DNA of 33,675 nt from Verrucomicrobiota bacterium (lineage in GTDB: Bacteria > Verrucomicrobiota > Verrucomicrobiia > Limisphaerales > UBA8199): the NCBI GenBank assembly GCA_038209025.1, contig JBBQYD010000003.1:1-33675 (forward strand), written 5' to 3'. This document shows, piece after piece, positions 1 to 28,283 of the stretch. Below the pieces are notes generated by a model. That model was not told the DNA's origin, did not search any database, and saw nothing but the letters and a program-made list of their open reading frames with translations. The position numbers and the translations under genes are program-made. The stretch's first letter is position 1. Each line of letters starts with the position of its first letter.

Positions 1-303
1 GGCTCTCCCGAAGATTTATCGTTCAGCCAGCGTTGGCACGACGCTCGAATTTGAGCCAGACTAACCCCGGCTGGACTTCTTGCAGCAGCCAAGCGAAAGA
101 ACAGTTATGAACAACAAAACACTCGCGGGCTTGGTCGGCCAGCAATCTGTAGCTTGGCCGGATGGCTCCGCCGCTGGGATGCCAGGTCTGCCGCTTGCCA
201 ACCGGGCCGGCGTAACAGAAAACCAACGCTCGCGGTGACAACGCTTGGCTTACCTGTGAGGGTGAGTCTCCGCTCGCCGCGAGCTTCGACCCCAGCCGGC
301 CGG

Positions 304-368
304 GCGCGTTTGAAACCTTCGCCGGGAATTTTCTTTGTCGTGTCAAGGCCCAGCTTGCTGCCGCTGGC
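304..368 (-). repeat. Copy 1 of a 65-bp direct repeat encoding a ubiD-like C-terminal peptide
   Basis: 60/65 identical to 1168..1232. The minus strand reads ASGSKLGLDTTKKIPGEGFKR, which matches the GSKxGIDATxK..EGF C-terminal motif of UbiD-family decarboxylases. Confidence 0.85.
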
Positions 369-373
369 CGTTT

Positions 374-811
374 TCATTTTTTCACCAACGGGTTGCGTGT
401 CTTGAGTTTTGGAAACAGGGAGAAATCGCGGTCGGCCGTCCAAAGTTCGCGCACGCCGTGGTGCAGGCACAGCGCGGCAATGCGCGCATCGTGGATGCGC
501 GGGCCGGATAATCCCGCGGCCAGCGAAAACTCACGCAACTTGTCAAAATAGCCGGGGCTTTCCGAAAGCAGATGCAATTGCGGCGAATCAAACAGCGATT
601 CAAGAAAGGCGAGGGCGCTGGGCAACGGGGAGGCGGGCTTGTAAACCTTGCCGCTGGTAACGACGGCGATGAACTCGTGAACGCAGGGCCAGGGCAAAGC
701 CCATGCGGAAGAACCTTCAATCACGGGACGGAGATTTTCAGAGGCGGTTTTATAAAATTCCGAATCCTCCCGATAGGCATAGACGAGCAGGTTGGTGTCA
801 ATGGCGATCAT
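374..811 (-). CDS. vapC: VapC-family PIN-domain toxin
   Basis: PIN motifs: IDTNLLVYA, WPCVHEF, IHDARIAA, LWTADRDF. 145 aa. Its start overlaps the antitoxin stop (ATGA). Confidence 0.93.
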   Translation of the reverse strand: MIAIDTNLLVYAYREDSEFYKTASENLRPVIEGSSAWALPWPCVHEFIAVVTSGKVYKPASPLPSALAFLESLFDSPQLHLLSESPGYFDKLREFSLAAGLSGPRIHDARIAALCLHHGVRELWTADRDFSLFPKLKTRNPLVKK

Positions 812-1056
812 GCGCCATGTCCCTTGTAGATTTCATCACGGATTTTTTCCCACGAGCCGTTTTTGAATTCGTCGGTCAAACCACCGCCTTTGAAAGTCAC
901 GGGCTTCCATTTCCATTGGGCGGGCCTGGCTGATTTTTCCTTCAAGACCAGACGAAGTCCCTGCTCGGCAAGAGCGCGGAACGTGGTCTTTTCCTTGCGG
1001 GCAAAACCCTTTGCGCGCTCAAAAAGGTCATCGGCGATTTCAATGGTCGTCTTCAT
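808..1056 (-). CDS. vapB: VapB-family (ribbon-helix-helix type) antitoxin
   Basis: MKTTIEIADDLFERAK...TFRALAEQGLR is a typical RHH antitoxin N-terminus. 82 aa from the ATG at 1056, translationally coupled to the PIN gene. Confidence 0.88.
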   Translation of the reverse strand: MKTTIEIADDLFERAKGFARKEKTTFRALAEQGLRLVLKEKSARPAQWKWKPVTFKGGGLTDEFKNGSWEKIRDEIYKGHGA

Positions 1057-1057
1057 A

Positions 1058-1093
1058 ATATGGCGACCCATATTCGCATGGGTGACCACCCAT
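1058..1093. promoter_or_regulatory. Tandem palindromes, likely TA autoregulatory operators
   Basis: ATATGG-cgac-CCATAT (1058-1073) and ATGGGTG-ac-CACCCAT (1078-1093) lie directly upstream of the antitoxin start. Confidence 0.55.
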
Positions 1094-1094
1094 A

Positions 1095-1253
1095 TCAAGG
1101 TGCTTTTCCGACAAGCGCATGCACCTTCGCCCTCACGCTTTCATCCATCTTGATCAGCGGCGGCCACGCGCGTTTGAAACCTTCGCCGGGAATTGTCTTC
1201 GTCGCGTCAATTCCCAGCTTGCTGCCGCTGGCGATTTCGCTGATGGCATGTTC
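1095..1253 (-). pseudogene. 3'-terminal fragment of a UbiD-family decarboxylase gene (contains repeat copy 2, 1168..1232)
   Basis: EHAISEIASGSKLGIDATKTIPGEGFKRAWPPLIKMDESVRAKV matches the last ~50 aa of UbiD/menaquinone-pathway decarboxylases. The rest of the gene is absent. Confidence 0.8.
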
Positions 1254-1303
1254 ACCCGCGCATCGCTGAGTGCGGGCGGGCACGCAATTTCCTATCAGTT
1301 CAG

Positions 1304-1438
1304 TCACAGTAGGTGGAGTCGCAACAGGTACAGCTCTTCATAGCTGATCGCGCCGGCCAGGGCTTCGTGGACGGGAGCGAGCCGCCGGGAGTCCAGACGT
1401 TCGAATACACTCATTACTTTTGCGCGCTCAGACCCGGG
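1304..1438 (-). pseudogene. Out-of-frame remnant of the RecQ C-terminal helix-turn-helix domain
   Basis: An alternate frame overlapping the recQ stop reads PGSERAKVMSVFERLDSRRLAPVHEALAGAISYEELYLLRLHLL*. This resembles the L.PV.EAL.G..SYEEL...R tail of HTH-bearing RecQ proteins. Confidence 0.65.
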
Positions 1439-3924
1439 CAAGCGCGAATAACTTGCAGGAATCGAGCGCCATAATTGGCGAGCTTGGTTTGGCCCACGCC
1501 ATTGATGGCGAGGAATTGCGCTTCGGTTTGCGGAAGAAACGTCGCCATTTCGATCAAGGAACGATCGGAAAAGATCACGTAGGCGGGCACCTGGGCTCGT
1601 TCGGCCAATTCTTTGCGGAGCGCGCGAAGGCGCTCGAAAAGCACGGGAGAGTATTGCGCGGAGCTGGCGGCGGGCAGGGCAACGGCGGCTTCGTGCGGCT
1701 GTGGAATGAGGACTTTCTGCTTTCCTTGAAGCACATCACGGCTTTTGGACGTGAGATGCAGGCCGCCATACTCAGGGTCCTGGTCAACCAAACCTAGACG
1801 GATGAACTGGCGCGCCAGTTCGCCCCATTCTTTGGCGGAATGTTCCTTGCCGAGACCGTAGGCGCTCAACCGCTCGTGCCGGCGATCAAGCACCCGTTGT
1901 GCCCGCGATCCGCGCAACACCGCGATCAGGTGCGCCTGACCAAACACTCCGCCAGTGAGCTTGATGCACGACAGGAACAGTTGCGCCGTGATTGTGGCAT
2001 CCACCATCTCGCCGTCCACCGGGACTTGAACACAGTTGTCACAATGGCCACAGGTCTGCGCGAGAGTTTCACCGAAGTACGCCAACAGCGGCACGCGCCT
2101 GCACTCGCGCGCTTCGGCGAAACTCAACAGCGCATTAAGCCGGGCCTCTCTGCCGGGCCGTTCGGACGGCGCGCCTTGGTCTATAAAATGGCGGTGGAAC
2201 ATCGCGTCGCCCCGGCTGTAGAGGAGCAGACAATGCGCGGCCAAGCCGTCGCGTCCGGCGCGGCCGATTTCCTGGTAATAGCTTTCCAGGTCTTTGGGCA
2301 AATGCGCGTGAATGACGAAGCGCACGTTGGATTTGTTGATGCCCATGCCAAACGCGACGGTCGCGACCATCAGCGAATCGTCCGCGTGGATAAAGCGGTC
2401 CTGGTTGCGGCGGCGCTGGTCGTCGTCCAGACCGGCGTGATACGGCAGCGCGGGCCAACCGTTCGCGTTGAGGGCGGCGGAAAGTTCATCGGTTTGCTTG
2501 CGTGTCCCGCAGTAAATGATGCCAGACTGGCCGCGGCGCTTTTCCAGGAACGCAAGTATTTGAACCAAAGCGTCCCGGCGCGGTTCGACGGCCAAGAACA
2601 GGTTTTGGCGATTGAAGCTGGCGACGAATTCGCCTTCCAGCGGAATGCCGAGCAAACGCCGGATGTCCTCACGCACGCGCGCTGTGGCCGTGGCGGTCAG
2701 GACGAGACAGACCGCTTGCGCGAACCGCCGGCGGACGCTGTGCATGTGGCGGTATTCGGGGCGGAAATCGTGGCCCCATTCCGAAATGCAGTGGCCCTCG
2801 TCCACAGCCAGGCAGGCGAGCTTGCTTTGTTCCAGCAGAAGCAGCGTTTCGGGCCGCAGCAGTGTTTCCGGAGCGAGGTAGAGAATTTTGATGCGTCCAT
2901 CCCGGATTTGGTTTGTGATCGCGACGTACTCGCGAAGCGGCACCATGTGGTTGAGGCAGGCGGCGGGCACGCCGATTTCATGGAGCTGGCGGACCTGGTC
3001 CTGCATCAGCGCCACCAACGGCGACACCACGACCGTCAACCCGCCGAAAAGGAGCGCGGGAAGCTGGTAACAGAGCGATTTGCCGCCCCCGGTCGGCATG
3101 ACGACGAGGGTGTCGCGCCGTTGCCAGGCGCGCGCAATGACTTCGGCCTGCACCGGAAGGAATTGCGAAAAGCCGAAGGTCCGCTTCAACACTTCGAGAG
3201 CGGGGCCGGGCAGAATGGCGGAATGGGCTGAGCTTTCGGCGGGTCTGGGCGCTGCTCCCGGGGTGCGGGACAGCCGTGGATCAATGGCAATGTCCGATGG
3301 CGCTACCGGTCCGAGAAACCAACCCGACAACTGCGCGAAGCAGCGCAATTCCTCGTCGGGCCGCTCCTTGGGCCGCCACCAATGCGCCAGGGAGACTCGG
3401 AGCAGCGTGCCGGCGGGAATCTCCGAAAGCGGCTCTTGAAAACCGACAAAGGTCAGCGCTCGTCCGCCGTCGGTTGTTGGATAGCGGTAGCGGATGCGTT
3501 TGCCCTCGCAGTCGAGTTGAAGCGGTTGGTCCGGCACCCAGAACATCGTGCTGCACCGCGGCAGGCCGGTGCGTTCGGCAATATAAAGCCCACCGCTGGA
3601 GGTGGCCTGCGCCAGTCCATCGAAAAGTTTGCTTGGCCCGCCCCGCACCGGCGGCATAAAGCGATGGATGGTTTCCTCCATCGGTTGCGAACGCCGGAGC
3701 CGGCGCGCCGAGCGCACGATGATGTTCTCCACGTGCGGAGGAACGAGGTCAAGGTCGGGAGTCGGATCTATTTCCCAAACCTCGCCGACTTCGTACTCCA
3801 GGCCCGCCCGGCCGTTGATCGCCGCGTCCGCCGCAATCAGCCGGACGCTGCGCCCCTCCTCCGCAATGCCGCCGACGCAAGCGCCGCCCCCGCGCCTGGT
3901 CTTGGCCACGATAAGGATGTTCAT
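1414..3924 (-). CDS. recQ: RecQ-family DNA helicase with an extra ~200-aa N-terminal (dual-OB-like) domain
   Basis: Walker A MPTGGGKSLCYQLPAL, DEGHCISEWGHDFRP (DEAH variant), YHAGL, ATVAFGMGINK, YYQEIGRAGRDG, Zn-site CRR...CGHCDNC, RQC region, and HRDC (PAYVIFSDRSL..MA). Residues 1-~205 are not RecQ-like. Confidence 0.93.
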   Translation of the reverse strand: MNILIVAKTRRGGGACVGGIAEEGRSVRLIAADAAINGRAGLEYEVGEVWEIDPTPDLDLVPPHVENIIVRSARRLRRSQPMEETIHRFMPPVRGGPSKLFDGLAQATSSGGLYIAERTGLPRCSTMFWVPDQPLQLDCEGKRIRYRYPTTDGGRALTFVGFQEPLSEIPAGTLLRVSLAHWWRPKERPDEELRCFAQLSGWFLGPVAPSDIAIDPRLSRTPGAAPRPAESSAHSAILPGPALEVLKRTFGFSQFLPVQAEVIARAWQRRDTLVVMPTGGGKSLCYQLPALLFGGLTVVVSPLVALMQDQVRQLHEIGVPAACLNHMVPLREYVAITNQIRDGRIKILYLAPETLLRPETLLLLEQSKLACLAVDEGHCISEWGHDFRPEYRHMHSVRRRFAQAVCLVLTATATARVREDIRRLLGIPLEGEFVASFNRQNLFLAVEPRRDALVQILAFLEKRRGQSGIIYCGTRKQTDELSAALNANGWPALPYHAGLDDDQRRRNQDRFIHADDSLMVATVAFGMGINKSNVRFVIHAHLPKDLESYYQEIGRAGRDGLAAHCLLLYSRGDAMFHRHFIDQGAPSERPGREARLNALLSFAEARECRRVPLLAYFGETLAQTCGHCDNCVQVPVDGEMVDATITAQLFLSCIKLTGGVFGQAHLIAVLRGSRAQRVLDRRHERLSAYGLGKEHSAKEWGELARQFIRLGLVDQDPEYGGLHLTSKSRDVLQGKQKVLIPQPHEAAVALPAASSAQYSPVLFERLRALRKELAERAQVPAYVIFSDRSLIEMATFLPQTEAQFLAINGVGQTKLANYGARFLQVIRACPGLSAQK

Positions 3925-3929
3925 AAACG

Positions 3930-4415
3930 TCAGTCTGGCATCAAATGCAAAACCTGAATGCCCAGGTCCTGCCGCAATCGCCCGGCCAGCAGCGAGCGAT
4001 GGCAGGCAGCCGGCTCGCGCTCGACACAGAAGAGCGCAACCGTCCGGACTTCGCTTCCCAATTGCGCGACAAACTGGCCGCTATCGAAGGTGGACAGGCG
4101 TTCCGCGCGGTAACCCTCGATGAACACCTCACCCAAAGCTGTCCGCTTGCGCTTGGCAGTTCCTTCCGCCTTGTCGGCCTCGGCCTGGCGCTGACGCAAA
4201 GCCGGTGCGGGCGCCAGTTCCCGGAAGTGGAGATAGCGGATGCCGATCTCGGCGAGCCGTTTCTGGAGACGAGCGCTGTTAACGAAGGCATATTCCGAAC
4301 CGCGCACGCCGCGCCGCCACCGGACGTCGCAGAAAGTGTCCACGCCCGCTCGTTGAAGGGCGCTAAAGAAGGCCGCTTCGCTGAACCCATAAACGCCAAT
4401 GGTGACCAAGTTCAT
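3930..4415 (-). CDS. DUF488-family protein (type B)
   Basis: MNLVTIGVYG, DVRWRRGVRG, GIRYLHFRELAP, LFCVEREPAACHRSLLA. Start placed at ATG 4415. It ends 5 bp before the recQ start. Confidence 0.85.
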   Translation of the reverse strand: MNLVTIGVYGFSEAAFFSALQRAGVDTFCDVRWRRGVRGSEYAFVNSARLQKRLAEIGIRYLHFRELAPAPALRQRQAEADKAEGTAKRKRTALGEVFIEGYRAERLSTFDSGQFVAQLGSEVRTVALFCVEREPAACHRSLLAGRLRQDLGIQVLHLMPD

Positions 4416-4449
4416 CGGAGTGAAGAGAGAATTCCGGTGGAATGATGGT

Positions 4450-5067
4450 TCAGGTTCCGTCCGATTCAGTTTCGTCCTCGCGCGGGCCGTAGCGTTTGCG
4501 GGAGGTGAAGGATTTCCCGAACAAATCCATTTGGCCATGGGTGAGCCGGTCTATCACCTGTGTCTGCGTGAGCAACCGGCCGTCCTCGTCAATGTGGCAA
4601 ACGGGAATGCCAATGGCCGTGAGCGCCTCGCCGATTAATTTGCTGCGATGGCACTGCTCCGGCCGGCCCTCGCTGCACATCAACGCCGCGCGCCGCCCCT
4701 GCTCGAACGCTTTTCGCAGCCGCTCGATCCCCGTCTGGAAGAACGGCTGCGCGCGGACCTTGTCGTAATCCACCTTGCCCTCCGTCTGGCAAGCCGGATC
4801 CCGGGGCTGGCCGCCGATCAGGTCGCCCATGAACAAGTAGCGGATACCAGCTCGCTCGATGTGATATTGGAGCAGTTCCCTGGAGAATTCCGATTTGAAT
4901 TTCGAGTATGGCGAGGTGCGCACATCAATGAGGTACTCGATGCGGTTTGCCTTCAGCGCCGCAATCAAGTCGTCCAGCGCGCGCGCGCCGTAGCCGATCG
5001 TGAAGAGCGGAGGAAGCCCGCCCGGGTCCACGGCTGCCGCCTCGGGTTTCGGTTCACTGGCATTCAC
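4450..5067 (-). CDS. DUF488-family protein (type A)
   Basis: LFTIGYG, LIDVRTSPYS, GIRYLFMGDLIGG, LMCSEGRPEQCHRSKLI are the conserved DUF488 motifs. Confidence 0.9.
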   Translation of the reverse strand: MNASEPKPEAAAVDPGGLPPLFTIGYGARALDDLIAALKANRIEYLIDVRTSPYSKFKSEFSRELLQYHIERAGIRYLFMGDLIGGQPRDPACQTEGKVDYDKVRAQPFFQTGIERLRKAFEQGRRAALMCSEGRPEQCHRSKLIGEALTAIGIPVCHIDEDGRLLTQTQVIDRLTHGQMDLFGKSFTSRKRYGPREDETESDGT

Positions 5068-5386
5068 GGGCCGAGTGTAGCGCCTCTAAGAAAATTGGAA
5101 AGAATGCTGTGAAGAGCAGAATCCGGCGTTTGGATCACGCGCGCACCTGGTCACCCACATACACATATAAAGGGGCTCTGTGCTCGCATGGTTGACGAAC
5201 GACGCACAACCCCGGCACCTCACGAAAAGGCCCGATAACGACGAGAGTGATCCCCTCGCATCCGCGGCCTCTGCCCGGGCTTTACTCCATCACTTTGCTC
5301 CCCTAAGGTGTTCCGATGGGAATTGTCGTTGTTCGCGTCGCGCGTTTTCGTGGAACCGAACCTTTGAGCCAAGGTCAAAACCTGAG

Positions 5387-6517
5387 ATGAAAGTGGTCTT
5401 TAATATTCGCCGTGGCCTCCCGCTCCTTTTCTGGGGCGCGCTCCTGTTTGCCCCGGTGGGCTGGGCCGATGAGAATCCTTACGTCCGCACCAACTGCTGG
5501 GCGACAGAGGTCCGCTCGCAGATTGATACCACCCCGGCGGTGGACGAGCAGGACAATGTCTTTTTTGGCACCTTCGATGGCAAAATGTGGTCTCTTGATG
5601 CGGTGGGGCACCGGCGCTGGTGCTTCCAGGCGCGGAATGAAATCAGGTCCTCCCCCGCCATTGCCGACGATGGGACGGTTTACTTCGGCAGCCGCGACCG
5701 CAAGCTATACGCCATCGGGGCCGACGGAACCAAGAAGTGGGAGTTTTTGACCGGTGCCTGGGTGGATAGTTCGCCGGCGATCGGCCGGGATGGCACGGTT
5801 TACTTCGGCTCGTGGGATACGAACTTTTACGCGCTGAATCCGGACGGGACCCTGAAGTGGCGGTTTCCGACCGCCGGCGAGGTGGTTTCCTCGCCCGCCA
5901 TCAGCCAGGCGGGGCGCATCCACTTTGGCTCGCACGATCAGAAGTTTTACGCGCTGAACCCGGACGGCTCCAAAGCCTGGGAGTTTGCCACCGGCGGTCC
6001 CGTGATATCGTCCCCCGCGGTGGATCAGGAAGGAGCGCTCTACTTCACCAGCGTGGATGGCTGGTTCTACGCCTTGAACCCGGATGGCGGCCTGCGCTGG
6101 AAACTGGCCACCGGGGGCATGACGGAAGCCTCGCCGGTCATCGCGGCGGATGGGACCCTGTATGTGGGGGTGACCACCAATCTCTGGGCGATCACGCACG
6201 AGGGCCGCAAGCTGTGGCAGCGGCGGCTCAATGATCTGCTCAACTCCAGCCCGCTGGTGCTGGCCAATGGCACCATCGTGTTCGACGGACGGTGGACGCA
6301 GGTGGCGTGCATCGCCCCGGACCGGACGCTGGCCTGGTACGCCGGCGGGGATACCACCCTGGCGGCCTCCCCGGCCGTAAACTCCGCGGGCAACATCATC
6401 ATCCCGTTCAATTTCAATTTTGTGGGCGCGATCGACGTGCGGGTGCCGCTGGCCCGGAGTGACTGGCCAAAGTTCCGCGGCAACCCCCGCAACACTGGCC
6501 GCGCGCCCGCGCCATGA
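5387..6517 (+). CDS. Exported PQQ-like beta-propeller repeat protein (BamB-like fold)
   Basis: Signal peptide, about 8 repeats of SSPAI..DGTVYFGS.D..YAL..DG..KW.F.T, and a C-terminal WPKFRGNPRNTG. Start placed at ATG 5387. Confidence 0.88.
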   Translation: MKVVFNIRRGLPLLFWGALLFAPVGWADENPYVRTNCWATEVRSQIDTTPAVDEQDNVFFGTFDGKMWSLDAVGHRRWCFQARNEIRSSPAIADDGTVYFGSRDRKLYAIGADGTKKWEFLTGAWVDSSPAIGRDGTVYFGSWDTNFYALNPDGTLKWRFPTAGEVVSSPAISQAGRIHFGSHDQKFYALNPDGSKAWEFATGGPVISSPAVDQEGALYFTSVDGWFYALNPDGGLRWKLATGGMTEASPVIAADGTLYVGVTTNLWAITHEGRKLWQRRLNDLLNSSPLVLANGTIVFDGRWTQVACIAPDRTLAWYAGGDTTLAASPAVNSAGNIIIPFNFNFVGAIDVRVPLARSDWPKFRGNPRNTGRAPAP

Positions 6518-21777: not shown

Positions 21778-21890
21778 TGGCTCGAACGGGCCCGTGGCAC
21801 CCCGCTGAGACGGCGGGCTGATGAAAGACGGCGCGCCTCGCATTCTCGGCTTCTTTTTGGACTCCTGCTTGCTATTCTTTGAGGGTTGCG

Positions 21891-24029
21891 ATGATCAGCG
21901 CCATCGAGTCCCAATTATCCGGTTCAGATGCCGACCTCCTTGGGGAGGTCCAGCGTATTTTTTCACCGGAAGGCGTGCTGTCCCGCTCCTCGAATTTCGA
22001 ATACCGCCCGCAACAGCAGGAGATGGCGGTGGCGGTGGCCAAAGCGCTTGAAGATGGGGAACACCTGGCGGTGGAGGCGGGCACCGGGGTGGGCAAGAGC
22101 CTCGCGTATCTGGTGCCGGCGATTCTCTATGCGGTGCGCAACAAGAAGAAAGCCGTCATCTCCACGCACACCATCAACCTGCAGGAACAGCTTATCCTGA
22201 AGGATTTGCCGATGCTCAAGCAGGTGATGCCCGTGAATTTCACCTCCACCATGCTGAAAGGCCGGGCCAACTACCTTTGCACCCGCCGCCTCCAGAAGGC
22301 CATGCAGCAGTCCGGGAATCTCTTCACCGACAACGAGGCCCAGGAACTCCAACGCATTTACGAATGGTCCAAAACCACCGATGACGGCAGCTTGTCCGAC
22401 TTCGAAATCGAGCCGGACCCCAAGGTTTGGGCGCAGGTTTGTTCCGAACGCGGCTTGTGCTCTCCCAAGACCTGCGGCCCGCCATCCGATTGGTGCAAGG
22501 ACCATCCGCCGTGTTTCTTCCAGCGCGCCCGCGGGAGGATTCTGGCCGCCGACGTGCTGGTGCTCAATCACACGCTGTTTTTCACGTTGTTGGGCGGCAT
22601 CGAGGAGGAGTTGGAAGAGGGCATCCTCCTGCGCAACGATTTCGTTATTTTCGACGAGGCGCACACGATGGAAAGCGTGGCGTCGAAGCACATTGGCCTG
22701 AGCGTCTCCAGCGGACAACTGCGCTACTCCTTAAACCGGCTGTGGAACCCGCGCACCGAGAAAGGGCTGCTCGCCACTCTCCGCCGCGGAGGAGAGGTCC
22801 GCCTGGTGGCGGACCTGCTGCATGAATCCGACACTTTTTTTGCGAGCGTCGAGGGGGCCTGCGAAGAGATTCAAAAAACGTCGCGCAGCCCGGTCGAAGC
22901 GGGGGCGGGCCGGAAACGGGAATGGAGCGAGCTGCGCATTCGCCGCCCGGAACTGGTGAAGGACAATGTCACCCTGCCCATTCAACGCCTGCGGGAATCT
23001 GTCAGCGATCTCATCAAGACCAGCGAGGACAAGGACATGGGCCAGGAACTCATGGAATGCAACCGGCGCCTCGCGGAGTTGAAGGATGAAGTGGCGGTGT
23101 TCCTGAACCAGACTTCGGAGGATTACGTTTATTGGGTGGAGCGCGGCGGGCGCAGCCAGCGCATGATCTCGCTAAACGCGGCCCCCATCGATGTGGCGGA
23201 GTTCCTGCGCCGCCGGTTGTTTGGCGCCGACACTTCGGTGATCATGACCAGCGCCACCTTGTCCGTCACGGGCAGTGCGCCGGCGGTTCCGGCGCCCGGC
23301 GCCAACCCCAAACCTCCCACCCGGCGTCCGGCCCGGCCCGCGGCCCCGGCCTTCCCCGGCCTGGATTACTTCACCAAACGCGTGGGGGCCGAATCCGCCC
23401 GGCGGCTGCAAGTGGATACTCCCTTCGATTATGCCCGGCAAATGAAGCTCTACGTGGTCGGCAAAATGCCCGATCCCCGCGAGGCGGGCTACCGCGACGC
23501 TTTGGTCCGGTGGGTCGAACATTTTGTCCGGCTGACCCATGGCAAGGCCTTCGTGCTATTTACCAATTCCCGGCTTATGCAGGAAACCGGCGAGTTGATG
23601 CAATCCTTTTTCGAGGAACTGGGCGTCAACTGCCTGATCCAGGGCACCGGCACCCCGCGCTCGCTCATGCTGGAGAAGTTCAAGAACGACGTCGATTCTG
23701 TCCTCTTCGGCACGGACAGTTTCTGGCAAGGCGTGGATGTCCCCGGCCAGGCCTTATCGAACGTGATCATCACCCGGCTGCCGTTTGCCGTGCCCGACCA
23801 TCCGCTCATCGAAGCGCGCATCGAAGCCATCGAAGCCCGGGGCGGCAATCCGTTCATGGAATTCTCCCTGCCGGAGGCCATCCTCAAGTTCCGGCAGGGC
23901 GTCGGACGCCTCATCCGCACCAAGACCGATTCCGGAATTATTGTGACCCTGGACAACCGCATTCTTACGAAGAAATACGGCCAGGCTTTTCTCGATGCGC
24001 TGCCCAAATGCCCGGTGGAAATTGTCTGA
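21891..24029 (+). CDS. DinG/YoaA-family ATP-dependent DNA helicase
   Basis: YRPQQQEMA, EAGTGVGKSLAYL, KGRANYLC with further Fe-S cysteines, DEAH, TSATL, FWQGVDVPG, QGVGRLIR. Confidence 0.94.
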   Translation: MISAIESQLSGSDADLLGEVQRIFSPEGVLSRSSNFEYRPQQQEMAVAVAKALEDGEHLAVEAGTGVGKSLAYLVPAILYAVRNKKKAVISTHTINLQEQLILKDLPMLKQVMPVNFTSTMLKGRANYLCTRRLQKAMQQSGNLFTDNEAQELQRIYEWSKTTDDGSLSDFEIEPDPKVWAQVCSERGLCSPKTCGPPSDWCKDHPPCFFQRARGRILAADVLVLNHTLFFTLLGGIEEELEEGILLRNDFVIFDEAHTMESVASKHIGLSVSSGQLRYSLNRLWNPRTEKGLLATLRRGGEVRLVADLLHESDTFFASVEGACEEIQKTSRSPVEAGAGRKREWSELRIRRPELVKDNVTLPIQRLRESVSDLIKTSEDKDMGQELMECNRRLAELKDEVAVFLNQTSEDYVYWVERGGRSQRMISLNAAPIDVAEFLRRRLFGADTSVIMTSATLSVTGSAPAVPAPGANPKPPTRRPARPAAPAFPGLDYFTKRVGAESARRLQVDTPFDYARQMKLYVVGKMPDPREAGYRDALVRWVEHFVRLTHGKAFVLFTNSRLMQETGELMQSFFEELGVNCLIQGTGTPRSLMLEKFKNDVDSVLFGTDSFWQGVDVPGQALSNVIITRLPFAVPDHPLIEARIEAIEARGGNPFMEFSLPEAILKFRQGVGRLIRTKTDSGIIVTLDNRILTKKYGQAFLDALPKCPVEIV

Positions 24030-27722: not shown

Positions 27723-27854
27723 ATGGTGGGGGCGGTGGGGAAAGGATGAAGGATGAAGTGGGAGGAATGGTCGGGGGGGGCTATTACCCATTGGAGATTG
27801 GAGATTTCAAAGGTAACTCCTTTACCGCACCGGGAAAGGGCGCGCCGTGTTAGA

Positions 27855-28283
27855 GGCGAGGGGCAGTACTTGGGCGGTGTCATCACCGAGAGTAAGAGCA
27901 ACGAGATCCCGGCGGCCCGCCAAGTGCTGCGGGGGCTGGATCTCAACGGCAAGATCGTGTTGAGCGATGCCCTCCATACTCAGGTGGACACGGGTCAGCA
28001 GATGGTCTTTGACCAGGGCGGCGACTACCTGATGACCGTCAAGGGCAACCAAGACCTGAGTCGGGTCAGAACACCCAACGCCGCCCTCGTGCTCGGAATG
28101 ATCCGGCGAGTCGTGCTCAGCTTGGCCAACGCGACCGTGGATAAAGCCCGCAAAGCCAATTCGAAGACCAAATACAATACCAAAAGCTTCCGCCAGCAGT
28201 TCCTCTCTGCGCGGGGCGGTCGAGAACGGCTCCAGGCACTAATTCTGGCCAAAAACCCTGCTGTGCTGCACTTACCATCATGA
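27855..28283 (+). mobile_element. ISAs1-family transposase remnant, 5'-truncated and internally deleted
   Basis: KSNEIPAA, DALHTQ and GGDYLMTVKGNQ are joined directly to the C-terminal DLSRVRTPNAA segment. The intervening catalytic region is missing. Confidence 0.85.

Follow-up and report, generated by a model that had tools for sequence, protein, structure and literature searches.

Bacterial RecQ works with SSB, and the eukaryotic helicase BLM works with the partners RMI1/RMI2, which carry oligonucleotide/oligosaccharide-binding (OB) folds, so that there is precedent for RecQ helicases that act together with DNA-binding OB folds. Neither system has a counterpart of the two DUF488 enzymes that accompany the RecQ described here. 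A second point of comparison is PDC-M45, a candidate defence system of PADLOC composed of a DuOB protein (PDC-M45A) and two DUF488 proteins (PDC-M45B and PDC-M45C); no paper naming this candidate was found, and literature searches on DUF488, DuOB, PDC-M45 and DUF488 with RecQ found no paper on the present system. The same three families were identified in a contig of a Verrucomicrobiota bacterium (GenBank assembly GCA_038209025.1, JBBQYD010000003.1, positions 1 to 33,675 of the forward strand; hereafter the window, 33,675 nucleotides), where two DUF488 genes (A and B) and a gene fusing DuOB to a RecQ helicase form a cassette at positions 1414-5067.

All three genes of the cassette were confirmed as open reading frames (ORFs) on the minus strand, matching the original prediction of three co-directional, tightly spaced genes. 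DUF488-A (4450..5067, 205 amino acids, GTG start) comes first, followed by DUF488-B (3930..4415, 161 amino acids) and the DuOB-RecQ fusion gene (1414..3924, 836 amino acids); A and the fusion gene follow the ORF list and Pfam. For B, the internal ATG at 4415 of ORF 3930-4538 is favoured as the start because homologues in the orthologue alignment open with M-x-x-VTIG, while a start at the alternative ATG (4538) would place the first 89 nt of B inside gene A. With the start at 4415, the intergenic gaps are 34 nt between A and B (4416-4449) and 5 nt between B and DuOB-RecQ (3925-3929), as had been claimed. No sigma-70-like site was found in positions 1-5600, where terminator-like sites were no more frequent than in shuffled sequences.

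The gene arrangement recurs well beyond the window. A scan for the DuOB domain, with one genome kept per species, gave 28 loci, in which the four parts of the window's cassette were then placed by tblastn. A, then B, then DuOB-RecQ on a single strand were observed in 23 of the 28 loci in several phyla, indicating that the arrangement is not due to chance and bearing out the DUF488-DUF488-RecQ synteny that the original prediction proposed to survey. Three further loci are cut by the start of their contig, which leaves a part of B in L082 and L084 and no DNA ahead of DuOB in L088. In two loci of one genus (L070 and L072), neither A nor B occurs in the upstream DNA, which amounts to at least 5.8 kb. 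For one of these two exceptions (G009), another contig carries an A+B pair with 84% and 71% identity to that of the window; in the other (G028) only an A-type gene was seen, at a contig end. RecQ follows DuOB in 27 of the 28 loci, the remaining one (L081) ending before RecQ. Crude gene calling and clustering of all flanks returned A, B and DuOB-RecQ as the only recurrent gene clusters; any other cluster in common was either an antisense artefact or restricted to nearly identical genomes. These results support the view that the three genes form a conserved, self-contained unit. Extra DNA separates B from DuOB-RecQ in L087 (4951-6001, about 1 kb) and L089 (4319-6001, about 1.7 kb), and the fused RecQ is broken over at least two reading frames in L074, L086 and L093, which may be pseudogenes or assembly errors; no other full recQ was seen in G063 and G064.

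The loci come from six phyla or more; by record title, they belong to Verrucomicrobiota, Chloroflexota, Poribacteria, Methylomirabilota, Phycisphaerales and Ca. Versatilivorator (labelled Acidobacteriota in the tree), with DuOB identities of 56-80% across these phyla; binning errors are possible for some of the labels taken from metagenome-assembled genomes (MAGs), and the hit coordinates and scores of L077 and L078 are identical. Residues 1-240 of the fusion protein, searched against 5.8 billion proteins, gave 974 protein clusters at E<=1e-3 (459-1463 amino acids), and all 120 of these that were listed contain DuOB and RecQ domains and are named, where they are named, only 'DNA helicase RecQ'. 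The fused type of DuOB was detected in none of 200 high-quality genomes sampled across other families of the phylum.

To place the fused RecQ relative to the ordinary recQ of the lineage, 60 relatives were surveyed together with the window's genome. Ordinary recQ was found in 42 genomes of this set, at about 720-767 bits, and the fused form in seven (G000, G009, G017, G025, G028, G031 and G039), two of which (G025 and G039) have both. In a quick IQ-TREE analysis of 36 RecQ cores, the 6 fused and 30 ordinary proteins lie on opposite sides of a long branch (SH-like approximate likelihood ratio test, SH-aLRT, 100). In a FastTree analysis of 46 rows, all 32 cassette-associated RecQs group with support 100, outside which are 12 ordinary Verrucomicrobial recQ and two others; both trees are unrooted, and no donor phylum is claimed. 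Because the RecQs of the cassette fall into a clade of their own, separate from the ordinary recQ of the relatives, the data support that the window's fused RecQ is not the vertically inherited recQ of its lineage. The original prediction had named an only and vertically inherited recQ as the outcome that would speak against it: the fused gene is the only full-length recQ found in the window's MAG, but its descent appears not to be vertical.

The genome G001, which belongs to the same genus and is a single contig at 96% completeness, has no DuOB or cassette and no recQ at E<=1e-60; on the purB side its version of the locus is preserved, with 75% identity. Ordinary recQ is missing at the same threshold from at least 13 other relatives, so recQ is not universal in the order. 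From the separate RecQ clade, the lack of the cassette in G001 and the 0 of 200 genomes of other families, the cassette is taken to be an acquired, patchily distributed element that is mobile between lineages, and the high identity across phyla together with variable genomic positions indicates horizontal transfer. Although acquired, the fused RecQ may still do ordinary RecQ work.

Free-standing relatives of the trio were also found among the relatives of the window's organism. Seven standalone DuOB genes were observed, each with a pair of DUF488 genes behind it, so that the order is DuOB, A, B (7/7), which agrees with the earlier statement that paired DUF488 genes accompany a dual-OB protein. 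These trios match PDC-M45A, PDC-M45B and PDC-M45C at 1e-75 to 1e-93 (classical DuOBs at 1e-91). PDC-M45 therefore contains the same families as the window, but its order differs from the window's A, B, DuOB, and its DuOB is a free protein of about 220-250 amino acids rather than a part of RecQ. The window's A protein matches PDC-M45B at 2.9e-45, and its B protein matches PDC-M19A at 1.2e-14, PDC-M45B at 6e-14 and, weakly, PDC-M45C at 2.5e-10. The PDC-M45A models gave no match to the window's DuOB region at E<=1, and none to the DuOBs of L066, L087 and Rhodothermus marinus at E<=0.01. The label 'undescribed' given in the original prediction thus holds in part: the families are in Pfam and the unfused trio is a PADLOC candidate, while the DuOB of this subtype is missed by the M45A models. 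By these profile matches, what is known comprises DuOB and DUF488-N3a in Pfam and the unfused trio as candidate PDC-M45, and what is new is a RecQ-fused subtype outside the M45A models.

An unfused form of this subtype is located on the plasmid pRMAR01 of R. marinus DSM 4252 (L118, NC_013502.1, 5911-9684), with the window's gene order and identities of 42%, 44% and 33%. This trio carries the marks of the window's subtype, namely a GQxxLFG tail on A and a basic insert in B, but it has no RecQ; it lies directly upstream of and co-directional with a gene for a 525-amino-acid Cas4-Cas1 fusion, across a 122-bp gap, followed by Cas2. An SSB gene and a PDC-M16A-type ATPase are located upstream and type III CRISPR genes downstream. 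In the record the two DUF488 genes are labelled DUF488 domain-containing proteins and the DuOB gene is labelled hypothetical protein.

The association of the three families is also seen in gene fusions of several kinds. Among 21 long protein relatives of the classical DuOB, whose domain order was mapped with local profiles, a RecQ with a C-terminal classical DuOB was observed in eight clusters (P0126, P0130, P0132-P0135, P0137 and P0139), the RecQ of P0126 being 53% identical to the window's. A near-full-length DuOB::DUF488-A fusion was observed in eight other clusters, with a ninth (P0128) partial; the listed set of DuOB fused to an A-type DUF488 is P0123-P0125, P0127, P0131, P0136, P0140 and P0141. 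Two of the 21 proteins (P0122 and P0131) also contain an AlbA_2 domain, and no match was obtained when metagenomes were scanned with the DuOB from the C-terminus of P0126. In two Versatilivoraceae genomes (L097 and L101), DUF488-A is fused in frame to RecQ in proteins of 936 and 943 amino acids, in which Pfam finds DUF488 and RecQ, and B and DuOB are absent. By these domain assignments, every pair of components is fused somewhere, as DuOB::RecQ, RecQ::DuOB, DuOB::DUF488 or DUF488::RecQ. Because four independent kinds of fusion tie DUF488 and DuOB to RecQ, the substrate of both is predicted to be the DNA that is being unwound.

A natural deletion series, to which the DUF488-A::RecQ fusions of L097 and L101 belong, was found within the same RecQ clade among the relatives of G062 (Ca. 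Versatilivoraceae). The full cassette is present in L103 and L104, whereas reduced forms keep RecQ preceded by just the first dozen residues of A (L102 and L106), by the C-terminal part of A (L105), by a remnant of the B N-terminus (L099 and L100), or by no remnant of A or B (L095, L096 and L098). In the tree the reduced forms are nested among full cassettes, and at least three changes are needed, from which three or more losses of the accessories are deduced within Versatilivoraceae, losses that spared RecQ and left in-frame scars behind. Whole-genome checks showed the fused DUF488 to be the sole significant full match in G074 and G076 (G076 also having a 22-residue fragment at E 4.7e-4), and no DUF488 was found in G078 and G068.

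The N-terminal extension of the fusion protein (residues 1-202, 3319..3924) matches the Pfam family DuOB ('dual OB-containing domain', PF22557) at 79.2 bits against a gathering score of 27, with model positions 1-210 covered, and the residues A7, C16, R28, E66, L100 and S178 are invariant in the orthologue alignment. Its structure model (predicted local distance difference test, pLDDT, 90.5; predicted template modelling score, pTM, 0.86) is almost wholly beta and forms two beta-barrel OB-like halves. The top Foldseek matches in the PDB were the HIN-200 domains of MNDA, AIM2, p202 and IFI16 (E 6e-5 to 1e-3, template modelling score about 0.3-0.42, sequence identity 7-13%), with POT1, RPA and BRCA2 at lower ranks. 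In the VIA comparison (Z up to 4.4) the rows were mostly OB folds (RPA, SSB, PriB and RecO) with a single HIN-200 row at Z 4.1, and a sequence search of the PDB gave no match below E 0.28. Like the HIN-200 domains, which bind DNA, the modelled DuOB has two tandem OB-like barrels in about 200 residues; this likeness is one of architecture and carries no evidence of common descent or of double-strand binding. Together, the Pfam match and the model support the proposed extra N-terminal domain as a tandem OB-type domain that is predicted to bind DNA.

A linker rich in Pro, Ala and Ser (residues 203-240, 3205..3318) joins DuOB to RecQ; its length differs among orthologues, and pLDDT falls below 50 from residue 207. 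It is followed by the helicase core and zinc-binding domain (residues 241-631, 2032..3204; Pfam DEAD, Helicase_C and RecQ_Zn_bind), the RQC winged-helix domain (residues 639-745, 1690..2010; 102.2 bits) and the HRDC domain (residues 762-826, 1447..1641; 74.9 bits). The protein passes the NCBIfam recQ equivalog TIGR01389 (702.6 bits against a cut-off of 640.2), and the Walker A motif GGGKS, DEGH, GRAGRDG and the Cys4 zinc motif are all readable in the translation, so the motor motifs are intact as claimed. It thus shares the full domain set of bacterial RecQ and differs from it in the covalently fused OB module, which is of a distinct family, and in its separate clade. Among the relatives the C-terminus of the fused RecQ varies, with HRDC, HTH_40 or both. 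The PADLOC labels 'DpdF' and PsyrT obtained for this protein were rejected as generic RecQ-core similarity (NF041063, DpdF, 196.7 bits against a cut-off of 550).

The two DUF488 proteins are about 29% identical and both pass Pfam DUF488 (PF04343; A 71 bits, B 55.2 bits, gathering score 22.2), so they are clearly different members of the family, as had been noted. For DUF488-N3a (PF22751, 'active N3 subclade'), with a cut-off of 27, B scores 31.5 bits and A 19.2 bits. The motifs are T23-I-G25, D48-V-R50 and C131-x-E-x5-C139-H-R141 in A, and T5-I-G7, D30-V-R32 and C130-x-E-x5-C138-H-R140 in B; the TIG and DVR motifs are therefore present as described earlier, while the spacing within the cysteine motif is x5 and not x4. 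In 25-row alignments the residues of all three motifs are invariant, the sole exception being R140 of B (24/25 rows). The subtype is marked by the A tail GQMDLFG..FTSRKRY, and B carries a basic insert (..TAKRKRTALGEVF..) that is missing from classical standalone B proteins. The idea that the A tail is a RecQ-specific docking peptide was dropped, since the R. marinus A protein has the tail without a RecQ.

The structure model of DUF488-A (pLDDT 84.7) had its Foldseek matches, all weak (E 4e-3 or worse), among cysteine phosphatases, including the capping-enzyme and baculovirus RNA 5'-phosphatases, and among tetrapyrrole methylases. VIA scores ranged from Z 9.2 to 8.0, with 9.2 for the N-domains of the methylases CbiL/CbiF, 8.9 for KAP, 8.5 for laforin and 8.1 for SsoPTP, although by the tool's own caution a Z near 8 can reflect merely a common arrangement. 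In the model, C131 closes the strand 127-131 and a helix is called from H140, so that a cysteine at a strand end and C-H-R at a helix start would correspond to a phosphatase P-loop layout. In a study of 2023, Burroughs and Aravind reportedly assign DUF488 to the RapZ-C-DUF488-DUF4326 clade within the Rhodanese-phosphatase superfamily and predict that this clade processes DNA ends in nucleic-acid-modifying conflict systems; the Pfam names DuOB and DUF488-N3a presumably come from the same work. The fold search and that reported placement point to the same neighbours, cysteine phosphatases and diphthine-synthase/tetrapyrrole-type methylases. A PDB sequence search with A gave a weak match to ribose-1,5-bisphosphate isomerase / eIF2B-delta-like chains (E 0.008) over residues 102-163, the region with the cysteine motif, which is probably a local motif similarity.

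We tentatively favour, with a little less than even confidence, the reading that the trio is a RecQ-coupled module for processing DNA ends or lesions, a RecQ-fused subtype of a system of DuOB and two DUF488 proteins. The tandem-OB DuOB would hold DNA at a single-strand/duplex junction, and the attached RecQ motor would unwind it 3'-5' and extrude single-stranded DNA. DUF488-A and DUF488-B, in predicted contact with the fusion protein, would then remove or transfer a phosphate-linked group, either a terminal phosphate or an adduct of nucleotide type, at the exposed DNA end or lesion, by means of their invariant Cys..Cys-His-Arg loop on a putative cysteine-phosphatase-type fold. In evolutionary terms, the DuOB/DUF488 trio would be a facultative accessory moving between lineages that has been hard-wired to RecQ in this clade, where the captured RecQ would also be the only full-length RecQ in most carriers searched. 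A slight lean to a conflict-type role over pure repair is drawn from the match of the classical trio to PDC-M45A/B/C, the position of the R. marinus trio beside cas1-cas2 and the repeated loss of the accessories.

Several observations weigh against this reading, and most of them fit its strongest competitor, in which these lineages use the fused protein as their normal RecQ for housekeeping repair, A and B heal termini blocked by endogenous or environmental damage so that gap or break repair by way of RecQ can go ahead, and foreign DNA plays no role. The fused gene is the sole recQ above the equivalog cut-off in the window's MAG (83% complete) and likewise in G061, G062 and G065. Ordinary recQ is also present in 2 of the 7 carriers, compared with 40 of the 54 non-carriers, and fused RecQ stands alone in 5 of the 7; this displacement count is soft, since related genomes are not independent data points and several of the carrier MAGs are incomplete. 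All five Pfam domains of RecQ (DEAD, Helicase_C, RecQ_Zn_bind, RQC and HRDC) are retained, as suits an ordinary RecQ job, and RecQ persists after the accessories have been deleted. In G017 (95% complete), DuOB-RecQ is present and DUF488 was found nowhere in the genome, indicating that the parts are able to work apart. The genomic surroundings point the same way. The window's neighbours are housekeeping genes (purB, a LytTR regulator, lpxK, ctaA, COX1/COX2, a DinG-like helicase and a beta-lactamase-fold protein). The 98 proteins in the flanks of the 28 loci gave only singleton PADLOC hits at 1e-10, and their most frequent Pfam families were COX1, Nuo-type/proton-antiporter subunits, LysM and aminotransferases, so that the proposed defence-island enrichment was not found for the fused type, and no copy of the cassette was found in phage records or viral contigs. 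On the biochemical side, a cysteine-phosphatase or tetrapyrrole-methylase type fold for DUF488 is plausible at middling scores, its substrate is a guess, and no biochemical or genetic test of a DuOB or DUF488 protein was found in the searchable literature.

Housekeeping repair nevertheless appears somewhat unlikely. The distribution is patchy, with G001 lacking both the cassette and recQ and the fused type absent from the sampled genomes of other families; the cross-phylum identities and changing positions argue for transfer; the accessories were deleted repeatedly; and the unfused relatives are a defence candidate, one of them in a plasmid CRISPR island. The softness of the displacement count also applies here, many of the carriers being incomplete MAGs.

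A rather doubtful, more far-reaching proposal is that DUF488-A and DUF488-B represent a new class of helicase-coupled, cysteine-dependent enzymes that would edit the termini or backbone of the strand extruded by RecQ, disabling or marking invading DNA, for example through a covalent Cys-phospho-DNA intermediate, with the cell's only RecQ doubling as a defence motor.

It is still less probable that the DUF488 pair adds a group (sulfur, phosphate or sugar-phosphate) to RecQ-exposed DNA as a mark of self or non-self, instead of removing one. Two invariant cysteines in each DUF488 paralogue and fold matches in both the phosphatase branch and the methylase branch of a single Rossmann-like assemblage would be compatible with such a transfer, as would the role in conflict systems reportedly predicted for the DUF488 clade, but the cassette, in which three genes recur, has no recognisable donor-generating enzyme (cysteine desulfurase or kinase), nuclease or other reader, and there was no sign of DNA modification in this analysis.

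The R. marinus locus, where the trio runs into the Cas4-Cas1 fusion and Cas2, raises the idea that the trio prepares prespacers for Cas1-Cas2 and that the RecQ-fused form is a derivative without that link. The DUF488 protein YeaO was found to affect spacer acquisition in an E. coli screen, an effect that the authors explain as indirect (bioRxiv 10.1101/2024.05.24.595836). The cas adjacency was observed at a single locus, and tblastn with the R. marinus Cas1/Cas2 gave no match in any other fetched locus, the window included, which makes this role very improbable. It is hardly credible that the genes lack a joint function and lie side by side through chance or shared transcription alone: parts do separate in some genomes, but the order is kept in 23 of 28 loci across phyla with flanks that are not conserved, and four independent kinds of fusion join the parts pairwise.

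The region downstream of the cassette contains a gene for a PIN-domain protein (374-811), preceded by a small ORF (808-1098), and this pair is flanked by a 77-nt direct repeat (297-373 and 1161-1237, 88% identity), in line with the toxin-antitoxin module and recombination scars noted beside the block. The minus frame of both repeat copies encodes the peptide GSKLG-x-D-x-TK-x-IPGEGFKR, and for this reason the copies look like duplicated ends of an older gene that was split by the toxin-antitoxin insertion; the peptide is similar to the C-terminus of UbiD-family proteins. Elsewhere in the window, a second helicase unrelated to the cassette is encoded at 21879-24029 (716 amino acids, DinG-like, Helicase_C_2 and DEAD), a 176-amino-acid ORF at 27753-28283 has a partial match to a DDE transposase (PF01609, E 1.2e-5), and the GC content drops to 0.53-0.57 near 25-29 kb.

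DUF488 is very widespread without a known activity and DuOB has never been studied, so the cassette offers a direct handle on both. Natural variants provide ready controls, namely the full cassette, DUF488::RecQ, DuOB-RecQ alone and RecQ alone, and genetics is feasible since R. marinus, a cultured thermophile, carries the unfused trio on a plasmid beside cas1-cas2. There is also a lesson for annotation, in that the 120 listed fused proteins are named only for RecQ and the PDC-M45A models are blank on the four DuOBs of this subtype that were tried. If DNA-end processing is confirmed, the trio would represent a new step in RecQ pathways or a new defence chemistry, and the cassette would be an example of an accessory module that captures and replaces a core repair helicase. 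If helicase-coupled editing of invading DNA were true, an immune-type module would have merged with a core helicase and displaced it in most of the carriers searched.

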